A DNA stretch of 64,000 nucleotides, from IMG/VR virus record IMGVR_UViG_3300045988_005108, positions 30,118 through 94,117 of that record; one strand, written 5' to 3'. Below the pieces are notes generated by a model. It saw nothing but the letters and a program-made list of their open reading frames with translations, had not been told where the DNA came from and ran no database searches. This stretch comes from a virus. Below, piece by piece: positions 8,017 to 63,548 of the stretch (the stretch's first letter is position 1; every line of letters starts with the position of its first letter). The translations under genes and the position numbers were made by a program.

Positions 8017-8784
8017 TTAATTACTTAATGATACGGCAAACAAATATTTATTATATTTTCTATCTAAGTAAACATGGGCATTATTATAAATAGTATTTAA
8101 GAATTGTATTGCTTTACTGTGAGTAAATTTAGTTTCATAATAGTTGTTGTTACCATATTTAGTTACTAAGTTTTCAATACCAGTATACTTCAAACAATTT
8201 GTAACTATATTTAGAGTTCCTACTATATTAACTCTTGGATATGGTTTAGTACAATTCTTATGTTCATCTATTCCAACACTTCCATCACCATCAAATACTC
8301 CTCTTACAAAAGGAATAACCAATGAAGAATCTTGGAATATACTCATACTTGGGAATTTCAAAATTAAAGATTTTCTTGGAGTGCATCCATAAGATATTAA
8401 CATATCTTTTAAGTGCTTACTTTTATTCATTATACTATATGATGTATATTCTTTGTAATGTTTAATTCTTATTGGATTCTTTGAACTAATAAACTCTTTG
8501 AATTTCTCTAAGTGCTCTCTGTCTATCAATCCAATCTCTAAACTACCATTATCAGAAATACAACCATCAGCATAAATGAAACCTAGCCAATATGCTTTCT
8601 CCTCAGTATCAATATTATCAAATATATGCTCATTGAATTGAGCTTTTGATAGTTTGATATTAAAAGATTTAAGTATATAAGATACTGTAGTATAGTATAT
8701 ACCTAATTCTTCTGCAATTTCCTTAACTCTTTTTCCTTGTAAAGCAAGTTCTTTTACTTTTTCATAATTTACTCTTTTCTTCAT
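8017..8784 (-). CDS. LAGLIDADG homing endonuclease (double-motif) with N-terminal HTH-like region
   Basis: 255 aa; two LAGLIDADG motifs (YWLGFIYADGCI and FVRGVFDGDGSV); sits between the two RNAP ORFs; has its own promoter-like motif. Confidence 0.85.
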   Translation of the reverse strand: MKKRVNYEKVKELALQGKRVKEIAEELGIYYTTVSYILKSFNIKLSKAQFNEHIFDNIDTEEKAYWLGFIYADGCISDNGSLEIGLIDREHLEKFKEFISSKNPIRIKHYKEYTSYSIMNKSKHLKDMLISYGCTPRKSLILKFPSMSIFQDSSLVIPFVRGVFDGDGSVGIDEHKNCTKPYPRVNIVGTLNIVTNCLKYTGIENLVTKYGNNNYYETKFTHSKAIQFLNTIYNNAHVYLDRKYNKYLFAVSLSN

Positions 8785-8806
8785 ATCATTACCTTTATAT
8801 TTGCTA

Positions 8807-8838
8807 CAAAGGTAGTAATAATTTATCTACTTAGCAAG
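8807..8838 (-). promoter_or_regulatory. Bacteroidetes-type promoter (cTTG-N20-TAccTTTG) for the LAGLIDADG ORF
   Basis: Minus strand reads CTTG...TTACTACCTTTGTAGCAAAT, the -7 box ending 22 nt before the ATG at 8784; same motif family as the five other promoters listed. Confidence 0.5.
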
Positions 8839-8854
8839 GATATAAATAAAATAT

Positions 8855-11800
8855 TTATACTTTACCAACCTTAGTAGTAGACTCAAACTGAACTACATCA
8901 ATCTGATTATCCTCCATAAACTTATTTATGGCTTTCAGCTTGCCTGACCTTCCTAAAGGACCAGCAATTAGTTCGTGCATAGCAAGTAATAGGAACTCTG
9001 AGTTCTTATGCTGTACAGGAGTCTTAATTCCAGTATGACCTTCAATGCCACTGTTATTATTGACTTGTGTATAAACATAAGGCTTCTTAGTCTGCCAAAT
9101 GATATTGAAGTCTTTGATATTCCAATCTCCATTCTTGAAGTTGTTATATGCCTGCTCCATATCATCTGTCCACTGACCTGACATACCAAGTATTGCCCTA
9201 TAGGAACTCAAACTTCTATATGCCTGAGCATCTGCTACATTCACATTCTTAAACTTGTAAATGATATTGTCTCTGTCTATCTTGGTCATTTCATTTCTTC
9301 TAACCCTTTCATCAAGTACAGTCTTGATGTCTTCAAGTACAGAAGATATTATCTCATCATCCTTCAAGTAGATAGTTCTTTCCCAATCCCTACCAATTCT
9401 CTCACCTTTATAAGTAGCCTTAGTATTCAATCTAAGAGCAGGAGCATGAACCTCCTTATATCTCTTCTGAAAGTCCTCAAGGTTCTTATAGAAAGCAAGG
9501 TCAGTAGTAGTAAGCTGGATAATTTGTGAAGTAGCTAACTTACTGTTCCAATAGTACTCTCTAAGAGCATCTTTAGCATTGTTCTTAACAAACAGGCTTC
9601 TTGAGATTGACTGAGCATCTTTCAATTCCATCTCACCTCTTGTTGCCCTATCTGTCATCAGATTCTTAATCTGCTCCATCAGGTTATTGGCTTCCCTACT
9701 ATCAAAAGCACTATTATTGTTATAGGCTCTAAGCATTAGTTCCATATTGGTATTCCACAATGAACCTAAAGCCTCTTTAGCCTTAATAAGTGCCTTTGCA
9801 GTTATTGCATTCTGCTTAGACTGACCTTCAAAAGGAAGATACTTGTACTTGCCATTAGGAAGTTCATCAAGCAGTCCTGCCCTTGACCAATCTCTGTAGG
9901 TTTGTTCAAAACCATCTTCCATCATGTCATTAAGAGTAGTTCTTAGAAAGTTTCTGAGTTCAGCACCAGTACCTGTGGATTTAAGTCTGCTTAACCTATC
10001 AATGAATGTTTCTCCATTGTCGTATCTGAGGTTGTTAAGTGCAGGAAGGAACTTAAATTCTGCACCTCCTATACTCTTTATACTACCATCTTTCTTTCTG
10101 ACAATATCATAGTTGGCAATAGGTTCTACATTCTTATCTCCACTCTGATAAGCATCATCCCTTTCTCTAACCAGCATGATTCTGTCATACTCTTGATTAA
10201 CCAAGTCTACTAACTTGTCAAGGATAACATCATCATAGGCTCTTTTCTTACCATTTTCATCAAGTACATCACCTGTTGTGTACTTTCTGAATCTGATAAA
10301 CTCAGCAGAAGGACTATCTGAAAGAATAGGAACATGATACCAAGCATACTTTATACTTGACTTTGCAGAATCAGGGTCTCCCCAATACTCTGTAAGAAGA
10401 GCTAAAGTATAGTCCAAATCATCCCAATTGGTATAGTCTACTTTGTCAGAGTTCAGCACTACTTTATGGTTAAGACCTCTTCTCAATTCATCAGACTCTG
10501 CAAGCTGTCTTAGCCAGTCATTTCTCCAATGACCATCCTTAAAGAACCACTCATAATCCTTGAACTCAGTTTGCATAAACTGTTCAAATCTCTCCTTGTC
10601 ATTCATAACATTCTTGAGATTCTTGATAAGTTTACCTAAATAGTTAGGAGTAACATGAGAATAGTAAGACTTATCATTCTCTCTGACACTACTTTCAATA
10701 GCATCCTCAGTTACCTCTGCCATCATACTTGCAATCATATTGTAAGCAGAGCCAAAAGTATTGATAAGGTCTCCTCTCTTCTCAGTACCATCCTCCCTTG
10801 TCTCAGACTTGACTTCACCTTTCTTAATACCACTGAATATGACATTCAATTGTGGTAAAAGAAGCATAATTGGGTCAGTAAATGTGATACCTGGAGCTGT
10901 CTTTATATCAGTTAATGCAGTCTTTAATACAGAAGGATTAGCATCAATACCTAACATATGAAGTAACTTCATTATGGTATTCCATACATCTTCTCTTTCC
11001 AAGAGTTGAAGTCTGGATTCTGTATCAAGGTTCTGGAACATATTGTTCAATGTCTCAGTCCATTGCAAACCCTTAGCTGCATTATCCTTGTTTATTTCCC
11101 TATTCTTCTCATATACACTATCATCATCAAGCTGTACTCCATTCTCATAGTTATCTCTCCAAGCATCAAGGAGATAATACACACCTTCAGGCTTATTAAT
11201 GGCAATAGTTTCCATTTTGAAAGAACCATCAGGCATCATTCTTTTCTTTTGAATCCAGTAAGGCATAAAGTCCTTTCTGAAGTCTTGATAGAATTGAGAG
11301 AATAAAGTTTCATCACCTTGAAGTAATTCTATTATTTGATTAACCCAAGGTTTAATCTTAGCCACATTTTCCAATAAAGGAATCATGTCATCAGAGTTAA
11401 TCATATTCCTTAACTTGTCAATGAAAGTAGCATGAACATAGTCAGCATCAAGGTATCTTGTGAAACCTAAATCATCTTCTTCATACATACCCTCATAATC
11501 AAGTTTAGGTACTTGTCTGATTACTTTTCTTACAGCTTGTGACAGAGACTCCTGTGAACTTACCTGTCTGAAATTGGTCATCCACCCATCTTTATAAGCC
11601 TCTTCTTGTCTCCAATCCTCTGCTTCATTATCTACCTCACTGTTACCATCAGGGTCATCATCATTGAGGTTTGCATCAGCAGGTGCAATGTAGTTGGGGT
11701 CTATCCTAATACCCTCAGTCATTACAAGCAAAGTACTTGCTTCCTCAGCAAGAGCTTTATAAACACTAGGGTCATCAACTATCTTCTTATATTCCTGATT

Positions 11801-15150: not shown

Positions 15151-15351
15151 TTATTTTCTCCTTTTAATATCTGTTATCAAGTTATTCTCTTTAATCAAAC
15201 GCAGAGCAATTACACATTCAAGATTCTTAGGTATGCTGACATGCCTCCCCTTATCATTCACATAAATAGCATGGTCTCCATTATGTCTGCTATAATAGAA
15301 GCCATTAAATTCCACTATCTTTATGAACTCTCTTGATGTATATTGTCTCAT
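15151..15351 (-). CDS. hicA: HicA-like (YcfA family) mRNA-interferase toxin homolog
   Basis: 66 aa; SREFIKIVEFNGFYYSRHNGDHAIYVNDKGRHVSIP parallels the HicA pattern (L.k.GF...R..GSH......g....V.iP) including the G-[SD]-H catalytic His. Confidence 0.55.
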   Translation of the reverse strand: MRQYTSREFIKIVEFNGFYYSRHNGDHAIYVNDKGRHVSIPKNLECVIALRLIKENNLITDIKRRK

Positions 15352-15352
15352 A

Positions 15353-15811
15353 CTATACTTTCAGAATGTCTTTATACCTCTCATAAGTCTTTCTTATGAC
15401 CTCCTCTCCTATTGGATTAGGTCTCTTTGAGTCCCTCTCTATACACTCTTGAAGAGGTATAAAGAAGTCCTTAAATTCAAGGCTGTACTTTGGTTTTACT
15501 ACATCAGGCATTGCCCACTCTGGATTATTCCAACCATCAAGCACTCTATTATAGTACTCCAATTCCTTGGGATTGAGATTCATATTGTCAATAACAATAT
15601 CAAAACCATAGGACATAGAATTTAGCAAGAAAACACTTCTCAAGCTTTTTACTAAATCCTCTCTGCTGGGAACCCAATACTTACCTAACATATTTCTGAT
15701 GTCATCATTGTTGAATCTTACTCTATGTTCTGGGTCTTCAAGTGCCCATTGTTTAGCCCACGTAGTTTTGCCACTACCTGGAATACCTCGGCATAAAATT
15801 ATTTTTGGCAT
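15353..15811 (-). CDS. P-loop kinase resembling the kinase domain of T4 polynucleotide kinase (AAA_33-like)
   Basis: N-terminus KIILCRGIPGSGKTTWAKQW resembles the T4 Pnk N-terminus as I recall it; 152 aa, no phosphatase domain. Confidence 0.6.
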   Translation of the reverse strand: MPKIILCRGIPGSGKTTWAKQWALEDPEHRVRFNNDDIRNMLGKYWVPSREDLVKSLRSVFLLNSMSYGFDIVIDNMNLNPKELEYYNRVLDGWNNPEWAMPDVVKPKYSLEFKDFFIPLQECIERDSKRPNPIGEEVIRKTYERYKDILKV

Positions 15812-21162: not shown

Positions 21163-21402
21163 TTATAGTTTCAATCCATCAGCAGTTGGTGCTACGTAAT
21201 CTCCAGACTTTGGGTCTTTACTTTCTGGATAGGGGTCAGGACTATTAAGAGCCTTTAAGTGCATACCTAGCCACATGATACCCTCTTGTAACTTAGTTAC
21301 TGCAAGGCTTCTCTCTCTTGTAGAAGAAAGCTCTTTCACTTTTTGAAGCACCTCATCAATATCCTTTCTGAGCTGTTTTGTTTTAACTATTTCTGATTTC
21401 AT
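21163..21402 (-). CDS. Hypothetical protein (79 aa)
   Basis: ORF 4 nt downstream of nrdD; helical N-terminal half; no motif assigned. Confidence 0.55.
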   Translation of the reverse strand: MKSEIVKTKQLRKDIDEVLQKVKELSSTRERSLAVTKLQEGIMWLGMHLKALNSPDPYPESKDPKSGDYVAPTADGLKL

Positions 21403-43494: not shown

Positions 43495-43890
43495 TTATTC
43501 ATGCAAATGTTTTAAGTAATCCTTATCTAAGTCAGGATGTTTGTGTATTAAGAATTTGCAACTTATACACACTATCAGGTGAGCTACACCCTCTGCTGCT
43601 ATAATTCCTATTACAATATCCTGCCACTTAGGAAGTGAATCCCAGCTTGTCAGGAAGAGTATAAGAATGAGTATAGTTATCCAAAAGGTACTACAATAGA
43701 TGCAGAATCCTAATGGATATGCTATAAAATGTAAGAATCTATTGCCACTTTTAACCATAGGTACAAACACTTTACTGTACAAAGGATAGAATATCATATC
43801 CTTAACCTTCAGGCAATTCCTATAGAATATACCTAATAGTCCACCTATTACTCCCAATAGCATGAACTCTAACATTAATTGTGTAAACAT
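43495..43890 (-). CDS. Integral membrane protein, about 4 TM helices (131 aa)
   Basis: Hydrophobic segments LMLEFMLLGVIGGLLGIF, FIAYPLGFCIYC, FWITILILILFL, IVIGIIAAEGVAHLIV. Confidence 0.5.
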   Translation of the reverse strand: MFTQLMLEFMLLGVIGGLLGIFYRNCLKVKDMIFYPLYSKVFVPMVKSGNRFLHFIAYPLGFCIYCSTFWITILILILFLTSWDSLPKWQDIVIGIIAAEGVAHLIVCISCKFLIHKHPDLDKDYLKHLHE

Positions 43891-43904
43891 AAATGATTTA
43901 TTTA

Positions 43905-44186
43905 TTACTGTATATTAAGTAACTTAGCAATTCTTTGAAAAGCCCTCTCTTCATACTTTCTGTCCTCAGGGTAATTTATTGCATCTTTGCACCATTCTTC
44001 ATAGCACTCTTTATCCATAGTATCATTTAATACTACAGGGTAGTAGATGTCTCCTAATATAGGATTATCACATTGCATACAGACACAATCTCCAGAGTCT
44101 GATATACCCCAACCTAGTTTACCTGCTTCATCTACTGACAACTTGATTACCTTGAACCCTTTGTCATTCTTAACTAACTTTGCCAT
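43905..44186 (-). CDS. Hypothetical Cys-containing protein (93 aa from the internal Met)
   Basis: Track start at 44225 lies inside the tmRNA 3' end; MAKLVKNDKGF at 44186 is the more likely start. Confidence 0.5.
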   Translation of the reverse strand: MAKLVKNDKGFKVIKLSVDEAGKLGWGISDSGDCVCMQCDNPILGDIYYPVVLNDTMDKECYEEWCKDAINYPEDRKYEERAFQRIAKLLNIQ

Positions 44187-44217
44187 AAAAAAGAAATTAT
44201 TATTAAAATACTTATTG

Positions 44218-44597
44218 TGGAGCATAGGGGACTCGAACCCCTGTCTTACTAATCTTTAATAAAAGAATTACACATGCTTACTACTTTTTAATGTGGTCAG
44301 TTACCCACTGAGCTAACTGAATTTACAGCATTTCCACCACCTTATTTTATTGTCCATAAACAAGGAAAAAGTTGAGTTACCTTCTGCGAGACCACAGCCC
44401 ATTAATGCTCTTAAAGTCGGACCCTCAGCCTTAGTCTTTAATCAGGCTTTGCACCTTTCTGTTTCCAAGTAAGTGCTACTCAGCCTATTTAGGCAGCAAC
44501 TCTATAAGAAGTATTGCCAGTTATTGTTTTGATGTCTTTCCATCAGTCTTTGCATGTTCTCTTACCAAATAATTAGCAATCAAAACCAAAATGCCCC
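44218..44597 (-). ncRNA. ssrA: tmRNA (SsrA-like), tag peptide GNTSYRVAA
   Basis: 5' GGGGCAT pairs with 3' ATGCTCC (G3:U70), canonical T-arm AGGGG-TTCGAGT-CCCCT, no anticodon arm; 5' GGGGCATTTTGGTTTTGATTGC resembles the tmRNA 5' consensus; mini-ORF GGC AAT ACT TCT TAT AGA GTT GCT GCC TAA at 44518-44489 with the stop in a hairpin loop. Confidence 0.8.
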
Positions 44598-44603
44598 ATT
44601 GTG

Positions 44604-44634
44604 CAAATGATGGGAGTTGTTGATTATTAACCAA
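44604..44634 (-). promoter_or_regulatory. Weak promoter-like motif upstream of the tmRNA
   Basis: Minus strand cTTGG-N19-ATCATTTG-N6-GGGGCAT; the -7 box deviates from TAnnTTTG. Confidence 0.3.
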
Positions 44635-44667
44635 GCTATACTTAATTAAGCTCCCACCATTGCAATT

Positions 44668-44883
44668 TTATCCTACACTCCTTTCGGGATTAGGTATAAT
44701 TTCCCATCCATCATCCCATACAGAACCTTGTCTATATCTCCAGAACTCCTCTGGGTCACACATTACACCATCTTCCAAGCATAACATACCATTAGTGCAT
44801 TGAGTTACCCACTCTTCTTTACTGAAGTATCTATGCCTTACTCTGTGAGTCTGCATAGCTTTAATTGCTTCCTCTTTTGTCAT
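44668..44883 (-). CDS. Hypothetical protein (71 aa)
   Basis: 4-nt overlap with the upstream 2H phosphoesterase ORF. Confidence 0.5.
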   Translation of the reverse strand: MTKEEAIKAMQTHRVRHRYFSKEEWVTQCTNGMLCLEDGVMCDPEEFWRYRQGSVWDDGWEIIPNPERSVG

Positions 44884-45290
44884 TTCTTTTCAAGTTTTAC
44901 AGTTATAACTATAGGTTCAATATTCTTCCAATTAGTAATCTCATTGCTATCTACAGGCTTTCCTTCCCTAAATGTGGCAATGGTAATGTGTGGAATATCA
45001 TTGGCACATACTACACCCTTTTTATCTACTCTAAAAGCCATAGCTTTGCTAGAAATGCCTACACCATTAATGACTATTTGGAACTCTTTTCCCACATAAT
45101 CTTTAAGGTAATTATATATTTCAGAGTTGCCATGTAGCTGAGATACATGTAATAGTGTACAATGGTCTATGAATATTCTATCTGCAACACCCAAGGCTAT
45201 ATTATAGTCTATGTTATCAGTCAGTATATCCATTAGTCTATTCTTGGTATCTGTATCAAGAAATAGACCAAAGTAATGAAAGTTGTTCAT
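44880..45290 (-). CDS. 2H-phosphoesterase superfamily protein (Acb1-like or LigT/CPDase-like)
   Basis: Two H-x-T motifs: DHCTLLH (H43,T45) and PHITIAT (H101,T103) in a 136-aa protein, the defining feature of 2H phosphoesterases. Confidence 0.55.
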   Translation of the reverse strand: MNNFHYFGLFLDTDTKNRLMDILTDNIDYNIALGVADRIFIDHCTLLHVSQLHGNSEIYNYLKDYVGKEFQIVINGVGISSKAMAFRVDKKGVVCANDIPHITIATFREGKPVDSNEITNWKNIEPIVITVKLEKK

Positions 45291-45529
45291 ATTGTGAGTT
45301 TTAAGAATTTTCTGTTTTTGGATTCATTTCTTATTGAAAGAATGTCCTAACAAAGTCAAATATTGTTTCCTATTGAAACATCATTATTAAAGTCACGTAG
45401 CTTCCTCTTTATATCCCCACATTTGAAGCAGTTGCATTTATTAAGTGGTGATAGCTTACCTATCAGCATCACATTTTGCTTTCTTTAGGTCCCATGCTTA
45501 GTAGAAATAGTGAGCTAAATCCACCATTG

Positions 45530-45603
45530 TATCTCCAGTGAGACTCGAACTCACAACCCACAGCTTAGAAGGCTGTTGCTCTATCCAATTGAGCCATGGA
45601 GAC
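45530..45603 (-). tRNA. tRNA-Arg(TCT)
   Basis: Hand-folded cloverleaf GTCTCCA-TG-GCTC..GAGC-A-ACAGC-CTTCTAA-GCTGT-GGGTT-GTGAG-TTCGAGT-CTCAC-TGGAGAT. Confidence 0.8.
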
Positions 45604-45703
45604 ATGCAAAAGGAAACCTGTATATCACATACCAGTTTCCTATAATAACCATTGATTTACTTACCTAAAAACAATCAAATTACCTTTACAAATAACACCT
45701 TAG

Positions 45704-45775
45704 TACTCCCAACAAGACTCGAACTTGTGTCTACTCTTTAGGAGAGAGTTATTCTATCCACTGAACTATGGGAGC
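45704..45775 (-). tRNA. tRNA-Arg(CCT)
   Basis: Cloverleaf GCTCCCA...ACTCT-CTCCTAA-AGAGT...ACAAG-TTCGAGT-CTTGT-TGGGAGT. Confidence 0.8.
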
Positions 45776-45831
45776 ATTTATCCTAATGTTGCTAAGCATA
45801 AAGGGAGCAGCTAATTCCCACCATTAGGAAA

Positions 45832-45906
45832 GGTAATAGTACTTACCATTATGGTAAGAACCCCAACATTGAAAAAGCTGTGCTCTACTTGAGCTATACT
45901 ATTACC
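45832..45906 (-). tRNA. tRNA-like element, possible degenerate tRNA-Glu(TTC) with a non-canonical T-loop
   Basis: 10-bp acceptor-like helix, D-arm GCTC-AAGTA-GAGC, anticodon loop TTTTCAA, but T-loop is CATAATG instead of TTCRANY. Confidence 0.35.
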
Positions 45907-45958
45907 TTATTAACTATACTAAATTTCTGGAATTTCCATAATCATACAATTTAGTGTC

Positions 45959-46717
45959 TTAATCAAATAATCTTTTTACTTTATCACCAAGAATTTCAAC
46001 TGCTTTAATTACATCTTCTTTATTCTTGAAGTATATAATTCCTGCATGTTGTACACAGAGATGCTGATATATATCTACACCATTGTAAGCACAAACTACA
46101 TTATTGCGTCTACTACAATTGCTAATGAAATATCCTGCATTGTTTATAGTTTTCTTCCAAGAGCCATTGAAGAACTTAGCAATGATTGCCAAGTCTGTAA
46201 GTGTTTTGTACTTCTCTACTTCATTAACAGGGGCATTGACATAGAAGCCTGTATTACATACCTTGCTGTTGATGTATTTGAAGTTGAGCTTCAATTCATC
46301 CTCAGTGTATGCACTCAGTGCTAATGTACGCAATGTACTATTACCACTATTATACCACTCCATTGCCTGTTCAAGTGTTACCTTGATGTTTCTTTCCTCT
46401 TCCATGTTATTTGTTCTTTGTTTATCAATATCAGAATCACTTCCTACCAAGCTACCATTAACCAATCCAGCAGGCTGGGTAATAACCTGTCCATTTACCT
46501 TGGTAATGTAGATGTCTTTCAGAGTTATTCCTTGCTGAACTCTATCAGTATCAAAAGTAAACCCTACTACCATCATTTTACTAGTGTATCTTGGGTCTTC
46601 TATCATATCATAGAGAGATACAGTATCATAGTTGCACAAGAACTTATACTTCTTGTAAGAAGGTATTGCACCAATAGGCACCTTTCTGTCTGTGAAAATT
46701 ACAGTTATTGTTCGCAT
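45959..46717 (-). CDS. Hypothetical protein (252 aa)
   Basis: Long ORF following the minus-strand tRNAs; no motif recognised. Confidence 0.6.
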   Translation of the reverse strand: MRTITVIFTDRKVPIGAIPSYKKYKFLCNYDTVSLYDMIEDPRYTSKMMVVGFTFDTDRVQQGITLKDIYITKVNGQVITQPAGLVNGSLVGSDSDIDKQRTNNMEEERNIKVTLEQAMEWYNSGNSTLRTLALSAYTEDELKLNFKYINSKVCNTGFYVNAPVNEVEKYKTLTDLAIIAKFFNGSWKKTINNAGYFISNCSRRNNVVCAYNGVDIYQHLCVQHAGIIYFKNKEDVIKAVEILGDKVKRLFD

Positions 46718-48891: not shown

Positions 48892-48920
48892 TTGATTGTT
48901 TGTTTATGGATTGATAAAAG

Positions 48921-48991
48921 GGAGGTATGATAGACTTGAACTATCATTATAACTGCAATTGAGTTATGTACTAACATTGTACTAATACCTC
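48921..48991 (-). tRNA. tRNA-like element with a non-canonical anticodon loop (CAATTGC; A33, anticodon ATT)
   Basis: GAGGTAT-TA-GTAC-AATGTTA-GTAC-A-TAACT-CAATTGC-AGTTA-TAAT-GATAG-TTCAAGT-CTATC-ATACCTC: perfect cloverleaf geometry but lacks U33. Confidence 0.4.
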
Positions 48992-55360: not shown

Positions 55361-55434
55361 GCCTCCTTAGTGTTAATGGTTTAGCAAGCCTGTCTTGTAA
55401 ACAGGAAGAGAGGGTTCAAATCCTTCAGGAGGCT
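55361..55434 (+). tRNA. tRNA-Thr(TGT)
   Basis: GCCTCCT...CCTGT-CTTGTAA-ACAGG...GAGGG-TTCAAAT-CCTTC-AGGAGGC. Confidence 0.8.
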
Positions 55435-58776: not shown

Positions 58777-61020
58777 ATGACAGAATTAATAAAGACTAAC
58801 AAGTACCAAACTCCTATAACTGAAGAGTTACTAAGTTCCTATCCAGATGAGGTTAGAGAACAGTTTATGGATGCTATATCTACTGTACCTCTCATCCAGA
58901 ACCTAATTTCACCTTCTAGACCAGCTATAGAAACTCTTCCTAGGGACTCTCAAGGAAGAGCCATAATAGACATTACTAACCCCCCTACTTTTGAAGATGC
59001 AGATTGGTTTAGGCAACCTGCACTATTCTTCTTGAAAAATGGTTGTTATACATTCCTTAGACCTAATAGTAATCCTAATAGTGAATATAGGAAGTACTGG
59101 GATAGAGAAATAGATAGGTGCTACAATGGATTATTAAGAGAAACTGATGGTATGTATATACCTGGGTATCTTTATTGGTTCCTTAATTACTGTCCTATGA
59201 TGATTAATAAATATAAAGAAGGACAGAAAAAGGCTATAAGAACTGAAGGATTTGCATATTTCTTTGAGGGTATTTGGTGGAGATATTTATATCTTAAAAA
59301 TGCAAGAGATAAAGGACATCATGCAGTAGAATTAGCCAAAAGAGGATGTGCTAAGTCTTATGGATTAGCAGCTATAATGTCCCATAACTTAATAATAGGA
59401 GAGTCAGAGGAATCAAAGAAAAGAACCATTACTGTGCTAACTGCTTACCAAAAAGAATATCTTAAAGATGATAAAGATGGTACATTAAGTAAGTTTGTTC
59501 CTATATTATCTTTTTTATCAAAGAATACCCCATTTCCTAGATTAATGCTAAAACAGTCTTCTAATGAAATGACTTGGCAAATGGGCTATAAGGATGAGTA
59601 TGGCAGAAATCAAGGTTCCTTAAATCAAGTAATGGGAGTATCTGCAAAGGATGATTCTGATAAATTAAGAGGAAAGAGAGGTTATATTCTATTTGAAGAG
59701 TTTGGTAACTTTCCTTCTCTTCTTGACCTCTATGATGTTACTAGGAAATCAGTGGAGGATGGAGATTATACATTTGCTTTAATGTATCTAATAGGTACTG
59801 CAAATAATAAAGAAGCAAATTTTCAATCTGCTAAAACCTTGTTATATGCTACAGAATCATATAATATTGAGTCCTTGAAAAATGTTTATGATAAGAAAGG
59901 ACAGGGCAGAGATACTTTTGGATTCTTCTTTCCCTCTTATATAAATAGGGCAGGGTGCTATAATAAAGATGGTATAAGTGATGTAGTTAAAGCTTTACTA
60001 CAAGTGCTCATGAATAGGTATAAGGCAAAGTATGGTGCAGACCCTACTTCAGTACTTAGAGTTATAGCAGAGGACCCCATTACACCTGCTGAAGCTATAA
60101 TTAAGGTTAAGGATGCCTATTTTCCTGTGGCTGCTTTAAATGAAAGAGCACAACAATTGGATACTAATCCCCATATCTATGATGATATATATGTAGGAGA
60201 ATTATTTTTTAATAATTCTAATCAAGTAGAGTTCAGACCTACAGGAGACATACCTATTAGAAAATTCCCAGTGGATAATGATACCAAGGGAGCTTTAGAG
60301 ATATATACTATGCCTGAGAAGGATAGTACAGGAACAGTATTTAATGATAGGTATATATTAGGATATGACCCAACAAATAATGACCAAGCAGAATCACATT
60401 CACTAGCATCTGTATTTGTATTTGACTTATTTACTGATAGAATAGTTGCAGAGTTTACAGGTAGAACAGAGTTTGCAGATGATATGCACGAAATAGTAAG
60501 AAAGCTATGCTTATTTTATAATGGTAAAGTGTTATATGAGAGTAACATTAAAGGATGTTATTCTTATATGGAAAGAATGCACAGTACCTATTTACTAGCT
60601 GATACTCCTCAATATCTTAGAGATAAACAGATTATCAAATATAGTGGATTTGGGTCATCAGCTAAAGGAGTGTCTGCAACAGCCCCTGTTAATAATTTTG
60701 CTAATAGATTAATTAAAGATTGGTTTAATAAGTTAGTTCCTATAGAGAGAACAGATGAAGATGGTAATAAGGAGATAGTACAAACCCCAAGCCTTTATCT
60801 TTTAAAGACAAGGGCACTAATTGAGGAAGCCATACAATTTAATCCAGAAATCAATGTTGATAGAATCAGGGCATTAGGTATGGTAATGCTTTATAGAGAA
60901 GAATATATTATATTGTATGGTAATAATCTTAATAGAGAATCTAGAGAAAAAGTAAGAAAGGATGACCCTTCAAATGACCCATTCTTCAAGAGAAACTATG
61001 ACTTTAGGTTTAAACAGTAA
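58777..61020 (+). CDS. terL: Terminase large subunit
   Basis: 747 aa; P-loop-like AKRGCAKSYG, Walker-B-like GYILFEEFG, C-terminal nuclease-like ILGYDPTNND; immediately upstream of the portal-sized gene. Confidence 0.65.
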   Translation: MTELIKTNKYQTPITEELLSSYPDEVREQFMDAISTVPLIQNLISPSRPAIETLPRDSQGRAIIDITNPPTFEDADWFRQPALFFLKNGCYTFLRPNSNPNSEYRKYWDREIDRCYNGLLRETDGMYIPGYLYWFLNYCPMMINKYKEGQKKAIRTEGFAYFFEGIWWRYLYLKNARDKGHHAVELAKRGCAKSYGLAAIMSHNLIIGESEESKKRTITVLTAYQKEYLKDDKDGTLSKFVPILSFLSKNTPFPRLMLKQSSNEMTWQMGYKDEYGRNQGSLNQVMGVSAKDDSDKLRGKRGYILFEEFGNFPSLLDLYDVTRKSVEDGDYTFALMYLIGTANNKEANFQSAKTLLYATESYNIESLKNVYDKKGQGRDTFGFFFPSYINRAGCYNKDGISDVVKALLQVLMNRYKAKYGADPTSVLRVIAEDPITPAEAIIKVKDAYFPVAALNERAQQLDTNPHIYDDIYVGELFFNNSNQVEFRPTGDIPIRKFPVDNDTKGALEIYTMPEKDSTGTVFNDRYILGYDPTNNDQAESHSLASVFVFDLFTDRIVAEFTGRTEFADDMHEIVRKLCLFYNGKVLYESNIKGCYSYMERMHSTYLLADTPQYLRDKQIIKYSGFGSSAKGVSATAPVNNFANRLIKDWFNKLVPIERTDEDGNKEIVQTPSLYLLKTRALIEEAIQFNPEINVDRIRALGMVMLYREEYIILYGNNLNRESREKVRKDDPSNDPFFKRNYDFRFKQ

Positions 61021-61064
61021 ATTTAGTAAAAATGAAGGCTAATGGTTAATAAATTATTTATATA

Positions 61065-61096
61065 CTTGTATAGGTCAAGGATTTTACTTACCTTTG
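61065..61096 (+). promoter_or_regulatory. Bacteroidetes-type promoter (cTTG-N20-TAccTTTG) for the portal gene
   Basis: CTTGTATAGGTCAAGGATTTTACTTACCTTTGCA, the -7 box ending 13 nt before the annotated start. Confidence 0.6.
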
Positions 61097-61109
61097 CACA
61101 ATAATTAAA

Positions 61110-63548
61110 TTGAAGTATATGGGATATGAAATGATAAACTTGCCTCCACAGCAACTTCCCTTCAGTAAGAAAAATAAAGCTTGGAGGAAGAAGCACTTGG
61201 ATTGGGCAGACAGTAAGACCTTCTTCAATTATAGCTTAGTTAGAAAATCTGTAATACATAAGAAAATTAACTATGACTTGCTCAATGGTAAACTCCACAT
61301 GAGTGACCTTGAGATGATACTGAATCCTGAGAAGCTACAGGCAGGTTTCATACCTGATAGGATTCAACACTATCCTATTATGAATAGTAAGTTGAATGTG
61401 CTTAGAGGTGAGGAAAGTAAGAGAGTCTTTGACTTTAAAGTAGTAGTTACTAATCCTAATGCTATTACAGAAATAGAGAATAACAAGAAGCAAGAATTAC
61501 TACAGAAGCTACAAGAGTGGGTATCTAATACTTCTCAGTCAGAGGAAGAGGCTAACCAGGAGCTTGAAAAGATAAATGACTATTACAGTTATGAGTGGCA
61601 GGACATGAGGGAAATTAGGGCTAATGCCTTATTAAACCATTATATAAAGGAGTTGAATGTTCCTTTAATGTTCAATCAAGGGTTCATGGATGCAATGGCA
61701 GTTGGTGAAGAAATTTACCAATGTGATATTGTAGGAGGTGAGCCTACTATTGAGAGATTGAATCCACTTAAAGTAAGAATCTTTAAATCAGGATATAGCA
61801 ATAAGATTGAGGATGCAGATATGATAATCCTTGAAGATTTTTGGAGTCCAGGCAAAGTCATTGATACCTATTATGATGTATTGACAAAGAAAGACATGGA
61901 GTACATAGAGAAGATGCCTGACCATGTAGGTCAAGCTGCTACAGACTCTATGGATAATATAGATGAGAGATATGGCTTTGTCAATAACCACATGGTAGGG
62001 GATGAAATAAGTACAGAGGGATTCTTTTGGGACCCATTAGGAGGGTATGATGGAGTTAATAATTCACTTCTTCCTTATGATGTTGCAGGAAACTTGAGAG
62101 TACTTAGAGTATATTGGAAGTCAAGGAGAAAGATTAAGAAGGTAAGAAGTTATGACCCTCAAACAGGTGAAGAAGTATTTAACTTCTACCCAGAGACTTA
62201 TGTAATAGATAAGAATGCTGGGGAAGAAGAGCAAATATTCTACATCAATGAAGCATGGGAAGGAACTAAGATTGGTACAGACATTTATGTCAATATGAGA
62301 CCAAGAGTAGTTCAATATAACAGATTAAGCAACCCTTCAAGATGTCACTTTGGAATTGTAGGCTCTATTTATAACCTTAATGATAACAGACCATTCAGTT
62401 TAGTAGACATGATGAAGCCATATAACTATTTGTATGATGCAATACATGATAGATTGAATAAACTGATAGCAAGAAACTGGGGTTCATTAGTTAGACTTGA
62501 CTTTGCCAAAAAGCCTAAAGAATGGGATGTAGAGAAGTGGTTATACTATGCAAAGACAATGGGTCTTGCAGTAGAAGACAGCTTCAATGAGGGTAATGTA
62601 GGTGCAGCTACAGGTAAACTTGCAGGTGCATTAAACAATGCTTCCACTGGTGTAATTACAGCTTCTGATGGTAATCAGATACAGCAATACATTAATCTTC
62701 TTGAGTTTATCAAGATGGAAATGGCAGAAGTTGCTGGTATTACCAAGCAAAGAGAAGGTCAGGTAAGTAATAGAGAGACAGTAGGTGGAGTAGAGAGAGC
62801 TACCCTCCAGTCTTCTCACATTACAGAGTGGCTATTTGTAGTACATGAGGATGTCAAGAAGAGAGCATTAGAGTGTTTGCTTGAAACAGCTAAGATAGCA
62901 TTAAGAGGTAGAAGCAAGAAGTTCCAATACATCTTATCAGATAATTCAATGAGAGTTATGGAGATAGATGGTGATGAATTTGCAGAAGCTGATCATGGTC
63001 TTGTAGTGGATAATAGTAATGGTATACAAGAGCTTAATCAGAAATTAGATACTTTAGCTCAGGCAGCATTGCAGAACCAGACTCTATCATTCTCAACTAT
63101 TATGAAGTTATTCAGTTCATCTTCACTTGCTGAAAAGCAAAGACTTGTTGAAAAGGATGAAAGAAGTATCCAAGAGAGACAAGCCCAAGCACAGCAACAG
63201 CAGTTGCAAGTACAACAGCAAGAGATAGAACAGAAGGCTCAAATGGAACAAGCTAAGATGCAGCAGGAAGATACTCTTAACCAAAGAGATAATGAGACAA
63301 AGATTCTTATTGCACAGATGCAAGCCTATAGCAAGAATAGTGAAGATGATGGCATAATAGAGCCTGAGTATTCACAAGAGGCTAAGGATAAGCTCATGGA
63401 ATCAATGAGACAGTTTGATGAAAGAATTAAGCTTGATAGGGAAAGATTGGAGTTTGATAAAGATAAGGCAAGGTCTGATGCAAAACTTAAAGAAAAGCAG
63501 ATAAACAAAACAACTCAAAAAAAAAATCAGATAAATGAGAAGATTTAG
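61110..63548 (+). CDS. Portal protein
   Basis: 812-aa ORF directly after terL; C-terminal Gln/Glu/Lys-rich coiled coil; track start is TTG, alternative ATGs at 61119 and 61131. Confidence 0.6.
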   Translation: MKYMGYEMINLPPQQLPFSKKNKAWRKKHLDWADSKTFFNYSLVRKSVIHKKINYDLLNGKLHMSDLEMILNPEKLQAGFIPDRIQHYPIMNSKLNVLRGEESKRVFDFKVVVTNPNAITEIENNKKQELLQKLQEWVSNTSQSEEEANQELEKINDYYSYEWQDMREIRANALLNHYIKELNVPLMFNQGFMDAMAVGEEIYQCDIVGGEPTIERLNPLKVRIFKSGYSNKIEDADMIILEDFWSPGKVIDTYYDVLTKKDMEYIEKMPDHVGQAATDSMDNIDERYGFVNNHMVGDEISTEGFFWDPLGGYDGVNNSLLPYDVAGNLRVLRVYWKSRRKIKKVRSYDPQTGEEVFNFYPETYVIDKNAGEEEQIFYINEAWEGTKIGTDIYVNMRPRVVQYNRLSNPSRCHFGIVGSIYNLNDNRPFSLVDMMKPYNYLYDAIHDRLNKLIARNWGSLVRLDFAKKPKEWDVEKWLYYAKTMGLAVEDSFNEGNVGAATGKLAGALNNASTGVITASDGNQIQQYINLLEFIKMEMAEVAGITKQREGQVSNRETVGGVERATLQSSHITEWLFVVHEDVKKRALECLLETAKIALRGRSKKFQYILSDNSMRVMEIDGDEFAEADHGLVVDNSNGIQELNQKLDTLAQAALQNQTLSFSTIMKLFSSSSLAEKQRLVEKDERSIQERQAQAQQQQLQVQQQEIEQKAQMEQAKMQQEDTLNQRDNETKILIAQMQAYSKNSEDDGIIEPEYSQEAKDKLMESMRQFDERIKLDRERLEFDKDKARSDAKLKEKQINKTTQKKNQINEKI

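Follow-up and report, generated by a model that had tools for sequence, protein, structure and literature searches.

A putative tmRNA gene with a conserved phage-specific tag frame in crAss-like phages of the Asinivirinae

Introduction

Does a crAss-like phage encode its own transfer-messenger RNA (tmRNA, SsrA), and what would such a gene contribute to an infection? The question is raised by a locus at 44218-44597 on the minus strand of the DNA studied here, a stretch of 64,000 nucleotides from the IMG/VR record IMGVR_UViG_3300045988_005108, which we call the window and which represents 64 kb out of a genome of ~100 kb. A preliminary description, made from the nucleotide letters without database searches, had read the locus as a phage-encoded tmRNA with the tag GNTSYRVAA. 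Here, we find that the sequence reads as described and that the assignment is borne out by ARAGORN and by a full-length match to Rfam RF00023. Based on comparison with related phage and host genes, we consider it likely that the window gene is a functional standard one-piece tmRNA gene (ssrA) that descends from Bacteroidota and forms part of the accessory gene content of a crAss-like phage of the Steigviridae/Asinivirinae.

Results

The gene measures 380 nt from G1 to the discriminator A (44218..44597, minus strand), as delimited by ARAGORN, Rfam RF00023 and a survey of 3' trinucleotides, and its minus strand reads GGGGCATTTTGGTTTTGATTGC...AGGGGTTCGAGTCCCCTATGCTCCA. ARAGORN reported a single tmRNA in the window, at 44217..44597 (-), with the tag GNTSYRVAA* and a coding part at gene nt 80-109 (44518-44489). 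The Rfam covariance model matched 44215-44597 (-) over positions 1-374 of its 374 and scored 69.8 bits (E 3.9e-25; gathering score 47), with low posterior probabilities across the central region of the pseudoknots PK1-PK4. The acceptor stem (7 bp), the long helix P2 and the T-arm were also recovered in the minimum free energy fold (-105.7 kcal/mol, z = -2.64 vs shuffles). The window gene is uninterrupted, with no intron, and does not encode a CCA end; instead, CAA follows the discriminator A. The earlier statement that ~430 nt lack a long open reading frame (ORF) holds insofar as there is a non-coding gap, the length of which is probably ~480 nt. The apparent overlap of the downstream ORF 43905-44225 with the tmRNA gene arises because the acceptor 3' strand supplies the first ATG of this ORF; since the PHROG match of the ORF begins at residue 14, its true start is probably the ATG at 44186-44184.

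Relatives of the gene were found in three crAss-like genomes by BLAST against 50,697 phage records, namely cr106_1 (MT774378/NC_055871), cr128_1 (MT774392/NC_055885) and Kehishuvirus 'tikkala' (OQ198717), and in ~63 further IMG/VR contigs, mostly of 50-100 kb, by two exact-word scans. The family comprises 52 unique sequences with a median pairwise identity of 80% (minimum 64%) and falls into classes of ~302, 316, 380, 385 and 445-450 nt, the unsplit members ranging from 301 to 450 nt. A variable module (gene nt 148-229; 44369..44450, -) is present in the ~380-nt class and missing from the ~302-nt class in the alignments. ARAGORN misses the ~445-450-nt class and the copies split by introns described below.

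For a test of the structure, the canonical helices were written from the window sequence onto an alignment of 48 distinct copies, with the 3' partners slid by 1-3 columns and 500 shuffles serving as controls. Across 59 canonical pairs, 99.3% of 2,832 cells pair, compared with 43-53% in the slid controls. Changes on both sides occur at 10 pairs (72 cells) as opposed to 4.8 +/- 0.9 pairs in the shuffles, none of which (0/500) reaches the observed values, although these statistics are inflated by relatedness, all copies having been fetched via exact conserved words and being related and of limited diversity. We therefore weighted the slid controls and the number of independent pair types above the shuffle counts.

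At the tRNA-like end of the molecule, the acceptor stem pairs GGGGCAT (gene nt 1-7; 44591..44597, -; G3 at 44595) with ATGCTCC (gene nt 373-379; 44219..44225, -), which places the U70 equivalent at 44221 and the discriminator A at 44218. All seven pairs, G3:U included, are invariant in 48/48 copies, and two copies found after these 48 (L185 and L189) carry GGGGCTA/TAGCTCC, i.e. two compensatory swaps with G3:U kept. Beside the acceptor stem lies the T-arm AGGGG-TTCGAGT-CCCCT with its 7-nt T-loop (gene nt 356-372; 44226..44242, -) and, as originally proposed, there is no anticodon arm. Compensatory changes are found at four of the five T-stem pairs (AGGGG/CCCCT, AAGGG/CCCTT, GAGGG/CCCTC, TTGGG/CCCAA and TCCAG/CTGGA). 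Helix P2 is formed by gene nt 19-46 (44552..44579, -; P2a 19-27, P2b 29-40, P2c 41-46) and gene nt 321-352 (44246..44277, -); its 27 pairs are paired in 99-100% of cells, with many changes between G:U and A:U or between U:A and U:G and one compensatory pair.

Further stems lie around and downstream of the tag. The hairpin at the PK1 position (44531..44544, -; gene nt 54-57 and 64-67; 4 bp) shows an A:U to U:A compensatory change in five copies. At the PK2 position, a stem at 44451..44476 (-; gene nt 122-127 and 142-147, inner part 130-132 and 137-139) is paired in 98.6% of cells and has a compensatory change from G:C to U:A or A:U in seven copies; a second PK2 stem, GGAAA/TTTCC, seen by inspection in the poorly aligning central region, is plausible. 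In the PK4 region, three of the four pairs of the 3' hairpin GTGG-GTAACTGA-CCAC (44293..44308, -; gene nt 290-305) carry compensatory changes (GTGG/CCAC, GTAG/CTAC and ACAG/CTGT). The stop codon sits, as first described, in the hairpin GCC-TAAATA-GGC at the helix 5 position (44483..44494, -), which is paired in 47-48 of 48 copies and gives no evidence of covariation because it is almost invariant. Together, the compensatory substitutions in five helices, the invariant G3:U70 and the intact tag frame indicate sustained purifying selection on the predicted RNA across ~65 phage copies. The preliminary description had named conservation and covariation in related phage genomes as a check, and both are present there.

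As a separate observation, the 5' strand of the PK1-position hairpin is flanked by two copies of AAAGAC (gene nt 47-52 and 59-64, within 44534-44551), and in 11/48 aligned sequences both copies read AGAGAC together. The two repeat copies are identical and not complementary, and simple pairing does not explain the linked change.

The mRNA-like domain contains a resume codon without a start codon, a short frame, an Ala-Ala end and an in-frame stop. In the window, the frame GGC AAT ACT TCT TAT AGA GTT GCT GCC TAA (GNTSYRVAA*; 44489..44518, -) directly follows the A-rich tract TCAAAACAATAACT (44519..44532, -), which is conserved in the family; the variant AAACAATTAACT, the 12 nt before the resume codon in some phage classes, is identical to that of eight Bacteroidota host tmRNAs. 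The tag frame is intact throughout the family: after the conserved ...TAA(C/A)T it is always open and ends in an in-frame TAA or TGA (65/65 copies). Its 15 DNA versions encode GNTSYRVAA, DNTYRVAA, GNTYRAAA, DNTSYRVAA, GNTSYKVAA, DNTYKVAA, GNTSYRAAA, GNSYRVVA, GTSYKMAA, GTSYRIAA and AKSYRMTPALMAA, with the consensus [G/D]-N-T-(S)-Y-[R/K]-[V/A/M/I]-A-A. The C-terminal Y-[RK]-x-A-A is conserved, and Ala-Ala, kept in nearly all copies, is the most conserved part of the tag. Differences in tag length among the 65 copies are whole codons only, and synonymous changes affect Asn (AAC/AAT), Ala (GCT/GCA/GCC) and Ser (TCT/TCC), while the stop alternates between TAA and TGA. Whole-codon length differences combined with synonymous changes are the signature of a translated frame.

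Host genes for comparison were collected with the pattern ANCT followed by G-E-[N/T]-N-Y-A-L-A-A-stop, which matched >120 genomes, almost all Bacteroidota, including six Bacteroides and several Parabacteroides and Prevotella. In these loci ARAGORN called 109 tmRNAs of 390-400 nt with the resume codon at nt 92-100. The Bacteroidetes tag given in the preliminary description, GE[NT]NYALAA, proved accurate for 107/109 of them (81 GENNYALAA, 26 GETNYALAA), a set that was itself fetched by a pattern built on that tag. Eleven host loci without an ARAGORN call are cut off at the locus ends and not intron-bearing.

Host and phage genes have in common the 7-bp acceptor stem with G3:U70, the discriminator A, the T-arm and the long P2. 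In both, a Gly (GGC) resume codon is preceded by the A-rich tract and ANCT, the tag is short and ends in Ala-Ala-stop, and a hairpin holds the stop codon. The CCA end is encoded in 0/58 phage genes and 2/95 host genes. The window gene is shorter than its host counterparts (380 nt, family 301-450 nt, vs 390-400 nt), and its resume codon (nt 80-82 vs 92-100) lies ~15 nt nearer to the 5' end, a shift due to the PK1 region, of which a single 4-bp hairpin is left. In contrast to the host tag GE[N/T]NYALAA, the phage tag [G/D]NT(S)Y[R/K][V/A/M/I]AA has Arg or Lys for Ala at position -4 and Val, Ala, Met or Ile for Leu at -3. The phage gene has a GC content of 38.9%, compared with 48.8% in the hosts and 35.3% in the window, and is ~59-64% identical to any sampled host gene, whereas the host-host median is 74%. 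This AT shift and this divergence suggest that it was acquired from a Bacteroidota host long ago and has since evolved in phage genomes as a long-resident gene, and that it is not a recent pick-up. Pairwise identity to the 109 Bacteroidota tmRNAs was uninformative as to the donor lineage, all hosts being at a similar distance (59-64%).

Another group of 24 IMG/VR contigs (L191-L214, 9-67 kb) carries a host-type tmRNA of ~397 nt with the tag GENNYALAA or GETNYALAA, often starting ~60 nt from the contig end. These are probably prophages excised with the host ssrA integration site, and their tmRNAs would not be phage-owned.

Because tmRNA acts together with SmpB, we searched for this protein. No SmpB domain (PF01668) was found in the 81 ORFs of the window, which covers 64 kb of the ~100-kb genome, and tblastn with two SmpB sequences, one of them from E. 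coli, gave no match in the window or in any family phage locus; the E. coli query did find a real SmpB in genome locus L178. Searched against all phage records, the L178 SmpB matched 68. The 60 of these that were listed comprise Lak megaphages, 630-735-kb phages and records of prophage edges or fragments, and none of the 60 is a crAss-like genome. With no phage SmpB detected, host SmpB would have to serve the phage tmRNA.

Upstream of the tmRNA gene lie two co-oriented tRNA-Arg genes (tct and cct; 45529..45775, -; ARAGORN), and in 61/64 family copies at least one co-oriented tRNA-Arg is found within 1.5 kb upstream, sometimes only 5-10 nt away. This orientation and proximity suggest that the tmRNA is co-transcribed with its tRNA-Arg neighbours and undergoes tRNA-type processing. 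A sigma-70 scan of 43800-46100 gave fewer promoter-like sites than shuffles and none that was usable, the model being unsuited to Bacteroides or crAss RNA polymerases, and the sole terminator candidate in this interval, a hairpin that overlaps G1-G3 of the tmRNA gene, is not conserved. A 136-aa ORF (44880..45290, -) lying between the tRNAs and the tmRNA has two H-x-T motifs and matches PF08302 (26.9 bits, cut-off 23; E 4e-6), the cyclic-phosphodiesterase (CPD) domain of fungal tRNA ligase, and is thus predicted to be a 2H phosphoesterase of the tRNA-ligase CPD type. Twelve family loci have homologues close to the tmRNA; we regard this putative enzyme as genomic context only, with no joint action implied. 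Elsewhere in the window, two adjacent ORFs encode a HicA-toxin-like domain (15151-15351, -; PF07927, E 1e-6) and a polynucleotide kinase (15353-15811, -; phrog_505, E 8e-27). The HicA-like domain, the kinase and the 2H phosphoesterase suggest RNA cleavage and end-healing functions in the window phage.

In six relatives (cr128_1/L002, L013, L038, L043, L053 and L063), the T-loop is split by a group I intron at TT|CGA(A/G)T, which extends the tmRNA gene to 1206-1318 nt. The introns are 869-871 nt long, score 86-88 bits with Rfam RF00028 and come in two types that are 76% identical (e.g. L002:3431-4299, corresponding to MT774392 ~8254-9122, and L063:13474-14344). The guide sequence GGACCC provides a G that pairs with U-1, the last nucleotide of the intron is G, and splicing is predicted to restore a perfect T-arm and T-loop. 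On the strand opposite to the intron, an ORF of 186 aa (L002:3645-4205, -) matches phrog_3322 (HNH / endonuclease VII; E 7e-20) and has a zf-FCS finger; it is probably a homing endonuclease. The cr128_1 record annotates neither the tmRNA nor the intron. Group I introns of the tmRNA T-loop are known at four subsites, of which 'position 3' has been reported solely from the class Bacteroidia (PMC11915505), and by our reading of that numbering the phage introns occupy this site. They differ from the published set, in which no tmRNA intron exceeds 700 bp, homing-endonuclease genes are of the LAGLIDADG type only and the longest tmRNA gene has 1152 bp (PMC11915505), in being longer, in carrying an HNH/EndoVII-type ORF on the opposite strand and in residing in genes of up to 1317-1318 bp. 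BLAST against 120 host loci revealed no host homologue of the phage introns.

One of the intron-bearing loci also shows an Rfam tRNA match that spans 112 nt (L063:11596-11707, +; 51.5 bits), which is long for a tRNA and may represent another interrupted tRNA gene. In the window itself, a 255-aa ORF (8017-8784, -) flanked by two very large ORFs contains a candidate LAGLIDADG-like motif, WLGFIYADGCI, and has no Pfam match at E <= 0.001 in a bulk scan.

By sequence, the window phage is a crAss-like phage of the Steigviridae/Asinivirinae, belonging to a genus without a representative in the reference collection. Its terminase and portal genes (58777-63548) share 73% DNA identity with uncultured phage cr128_1 (Mahlunavirus) and ~72% with the crAss001 group, and Pfam domains in the window include family-A DNA polymerase, NrdD, ThyX, UDG, ThiF and a Band-7 protein. 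The 81 ORFs of >=50 aa encode 18,761 aa in 64 kb and are long under the standard code. We considered stop-codon recoding as a reason for carrying a tmRNA and rejected it in view of these long standard-code ORFs and the lack of a suppressor tRNA in the ARAGORN output. ARAGORN and Rfam find 26-28 tRNA genes in the window. They disagree on a tRNA-Asn with the unusual anticodon ATT (48920-48991, -), called by ARAGORN and not reported by Rfam at its threshold, and on two tRNAs found by Rfam and missed by ARAGORN at 45834-45903 (-; 34.3 bits) and 55361-55434 (+; 51.9 bits). A 79-aa ORF (21163-21402, -) has an Acb2/Tad1 hairpin domain (PF24729, E 2e-5, just under the curated cut-off) and is possibly a sponge for cyclic-nucleotide defence signals.

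Discussion

How would such a gene act? The gene would be transcribed along with the tRNAs beside it, the host enzymes that process tRNAs would trim the product, and a host enzyme would add CCA, as this end is encoded in neither the phage nor the host genes. Host alanyl-tRNA synthetase (AlaRS) would then charge the phage tmRNA with alanine through the invariant G3:U70, host SmpB would bind it, and the complex would enter ribosomes stalled on broken or stop-less mRNAs. Translation would move to the tag frame and the ribosome would be freed at TAA, leaving a nascent chain that ends in (A)GNTSYRVAA. The likeliest benefit, to which we give about even odds, would be additional ribosome-rescue capacity during infection, when mRNAs are cut by host defence nucleases or phage-induced host shut-off; the 26-28 tRNA genes, the polynucleotide kinase, the 2H phosphoesterase and the HicA-like mRNA interferase domain would fit such a benefit. 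Ala-Ala is kept while the remaining tag is unlike that of the host, so the handling of phage-tagged proteins may differ from that of host-tagged ones in its kinetics or in the adaptors involved.

Several observations weigh against a functional standard tmRNA. What the sequences themselves show is that the gene is conserved and bears the sequence hallmarks of tmRNA, whereas the later steps of the mechanism are drawn from established tmRNA biology, and the covariation comes from the related copies discussed above. The expected pseudoknots PK1-PK4 are recovered in part, with one supported stem each at the PK1, PK2 and PK4 positions. By inspection of the family alignments, we found no complementary partner for a second PK1 stem, so that PK1 is seemingly just the 4-bp hairpin, and PK1 matters for tagging in E. 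coli. Support for the PK2-PK4 stems is partial; this region is highly length-variable, and MAFFT misaligns the size classes across it. Moreover, host tmRNA is normally abundant and stable, and the need for extra copies is not obvious.

The distribution of the gene points in the same direction. It is missing from the crAss001-group phages and from the closest overall relative of the window phage, bajarodcaudo virus 1, which keeps paired tRNA-Arg genes despite having no tmRNA; the tmRNA gene is an accessory, dispensable one. Three copies are damaged. In Kehishuvirus tikkala, the sole cultured phage found with this gene, the sequence after GGGTTCGAGTCC is replaced by AACCATCCCCA (L003:3004-3310; OQ198717 ~87736-88042). 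As the replacement begins past the T-loop, it abolishes both the T-stem and the acceptor stem, and with the latter G3:U70; the Rfam score of 41.7 bits falls below the cut-off, and the remainder, including the tag DNTYRVAA, is intact. L004 (IMGVR_UViG_3300045988_100107) is truncated at its 3' side, the end being lost after AATTCTTTGATTA. L040 (IMGVR_UViG_3300008272_000065) measures 91 nt and keeps the acceptor stem, P2a and the T-arm, with a deletion from nt ~57 to the P2a 3' strand; it could be either a tag-less mini-tmRNA reminiscent of the RNA of mycobacteriophage DS6A, which consists of the tRNA-like domain (TLD) only, or an assembly artefact.

These damaged copies bear on two other explanations of the locus. 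The phage tmRNA might act as a hijacker or decoy that competes for SmpB and stalled ribosomes and swaps the host degron for the phage tag, thereby altering protein fate, through slower or no degradation or routing to another protease or adaptor, or blunting a host response that depends on trans-translation. A tag that is unlike the host consensus at most positions and whose phage-specific pattern is itself conserved speaks for this idea, as do the sharing of host SmpB that follows from having no phage SmpB, the reduction of L040 to 91 nt without a tag and the precedent of the DS6A RNA, which is thought to titrate SmpB (PMC4131195, PMC11915505). However, the C-terminal Ala-Ala is retained in nearly all copies, a pure decoy would need no codon-constrained tag frame, resume context or stop codon, and L040 is a single contig that may be an assembly artefact, so we rate this explanation, although the main rival, as improbable. 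Patchy distribution, three independently damaged copies and invasion by an intron bearing a homing endonuclease would also be expected of a neutral passenger, i.e. a host-derived hitch-hiker in a variable tRNA region that confers no benefit and is heading for loss. Such a passenger would not be expected to keep G3:U70 invariant, to show compensatory changes in five helices, or to retain an intact tag with synonymous changes among copies down to 64% identity; in addition, its composition has drifted to phage-like while the structure was kept, and the intron is placed where splicing restores a perfect T-loop. We consider it very improbable.

Since tmRNA genes are frequent integration sites (PMC11915505), and 24 IMG/VR contigs carry host-type GENNYALAA tmRNAs, many of them at contig ends, the locus could in principle mimic the 3' end of host ssrA as an attP-type copy for the integration of a temperate phage. 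Yet the gene is full length and not a 3' fragment, is ~59-64% identical to hosts, has a tag of its own and occupies a conserved internal position inside a ~100-kb crAss-like genome, and there is no integrase domain among the window ORFs; this possibility is effectively refuted. Covariation, full length, host divergence and the lack of an integrase thus contradict both the passenger and the integration-site explanations. The presence of a TROVE/Ro60 gene 2.2 kb away from the cr106_1 copy led us to consider a Y-RNA or other tRNA-like RNA as well; we rejected it because the tmRNA model matches over its full length and the tag frame is conserved. The window ORFs showed no TROVE domain.

A functional tmRNA is our preferred explanation. 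Tentatively, and with the odds against the picture as a whole, the tmRNA could belong to a translation-maintenance and counter-defence kit together with the 26-28 tRNAs, the polynucleotide kinase, the 2H cyclic phosphodiesterase and the HicA-like interferase. Truncated mRNAs would be produced by the phage or by RNA-cleaving defences of the host, stalled ribosomes would be cleared for phage use via host SmpB, and the phage tag, with Arg/Lys at -4 and Val/Ala/Met/Ile at -3, would route the tagged host fragments otherwise than the host degron does. The 'position 3' introns would have been exchanged between phage and host tmRNA genes, or the reports from Bacteroidia would stem from crAss-like contigs binned into metagenome-assembled genomes of that class.

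Phage tmRNAs as such are not new. Eight mycobacteriophages, Bacillus phage G and DS6A have been listed as carrying one (PMC4131195), and tmRNA together with SmpB was reported in huge phages (Al-Shayeb et al. 2020, PMC7162821; for phage G see also PMC12484599). The window gene resembles those of huge phages and megaphages (Lak, Bacillus phage G) in lying beside a large set of phage tRNAs, with a presumed role in translation upkeep. Those genomes exceed 200 kb and often encode their own SmpB and other translation factors, whereas crAss-like genomes have ~100 kb, and an SmpB of the huge-phage type of translation module was not found for the window tmRNA among the window ORFs and family loci. The tmRNAs of mycobacteriophages (e.g. 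Bxz1, Cali, Catera) likewise occur without a phage SmpB in phages of ordinary size, albeit in an unrelated lineage infecting another host phylum. The TLD-only RNA of DS6A has no tag frame and is regarded as an inhibitor, whereas the window gene is full length with a conserved tag frame.

Within crAss-like phages, the homologue in cr106_1 (Mahstovirus faecalis) is already annotated as 'transfer-messenger RNA, SsrA'. This phage belongs to another Asinivirinae genus; its gene is ~91% identical over alignable blocks, lies in the same place after tRNA genes and has the tag DNTYRVAA, but belongs to the 302-304-nt class without the ~80-nt module (window 44369-44450) and has an Asp resume codon and one Ser codon fewer. 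The claim of the preliminary description that a tmRNA had not been described for crAss-like phages was thus overstated, given the known phage tmRNAs and the one crAss-like annotation, although our full-text searches found no paper that discusses tmRNA in these phages. New are the conserved phage-specific tag, the lack of a phage SmpB, the reduced PK1 region, the modular size variation and the unusually long endonuclease-bearing introns at a Bacteroidia-specific subsite.

For annotation, our results mean that the GenBank records of cr128_1 and tikkala leave the tmRNA region unannotated or under spurious 'hypothetical protein' coding sequences, two short ones in the case of tikkala. For the biology of ribosome rescue, the phage tags constitute a natural experiment that bears on the importance of individual tag positions in Bacteroidota. 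Few viruses of the human gut are as abundant as crAss-like phages, yet little is understood of how they take over translation in Bacteroides; a tmRNA that is conserved in these phages and would borrow host SmpB and AlaRS while writing a different tag offers a testable handle on ribosome rescue during infection.

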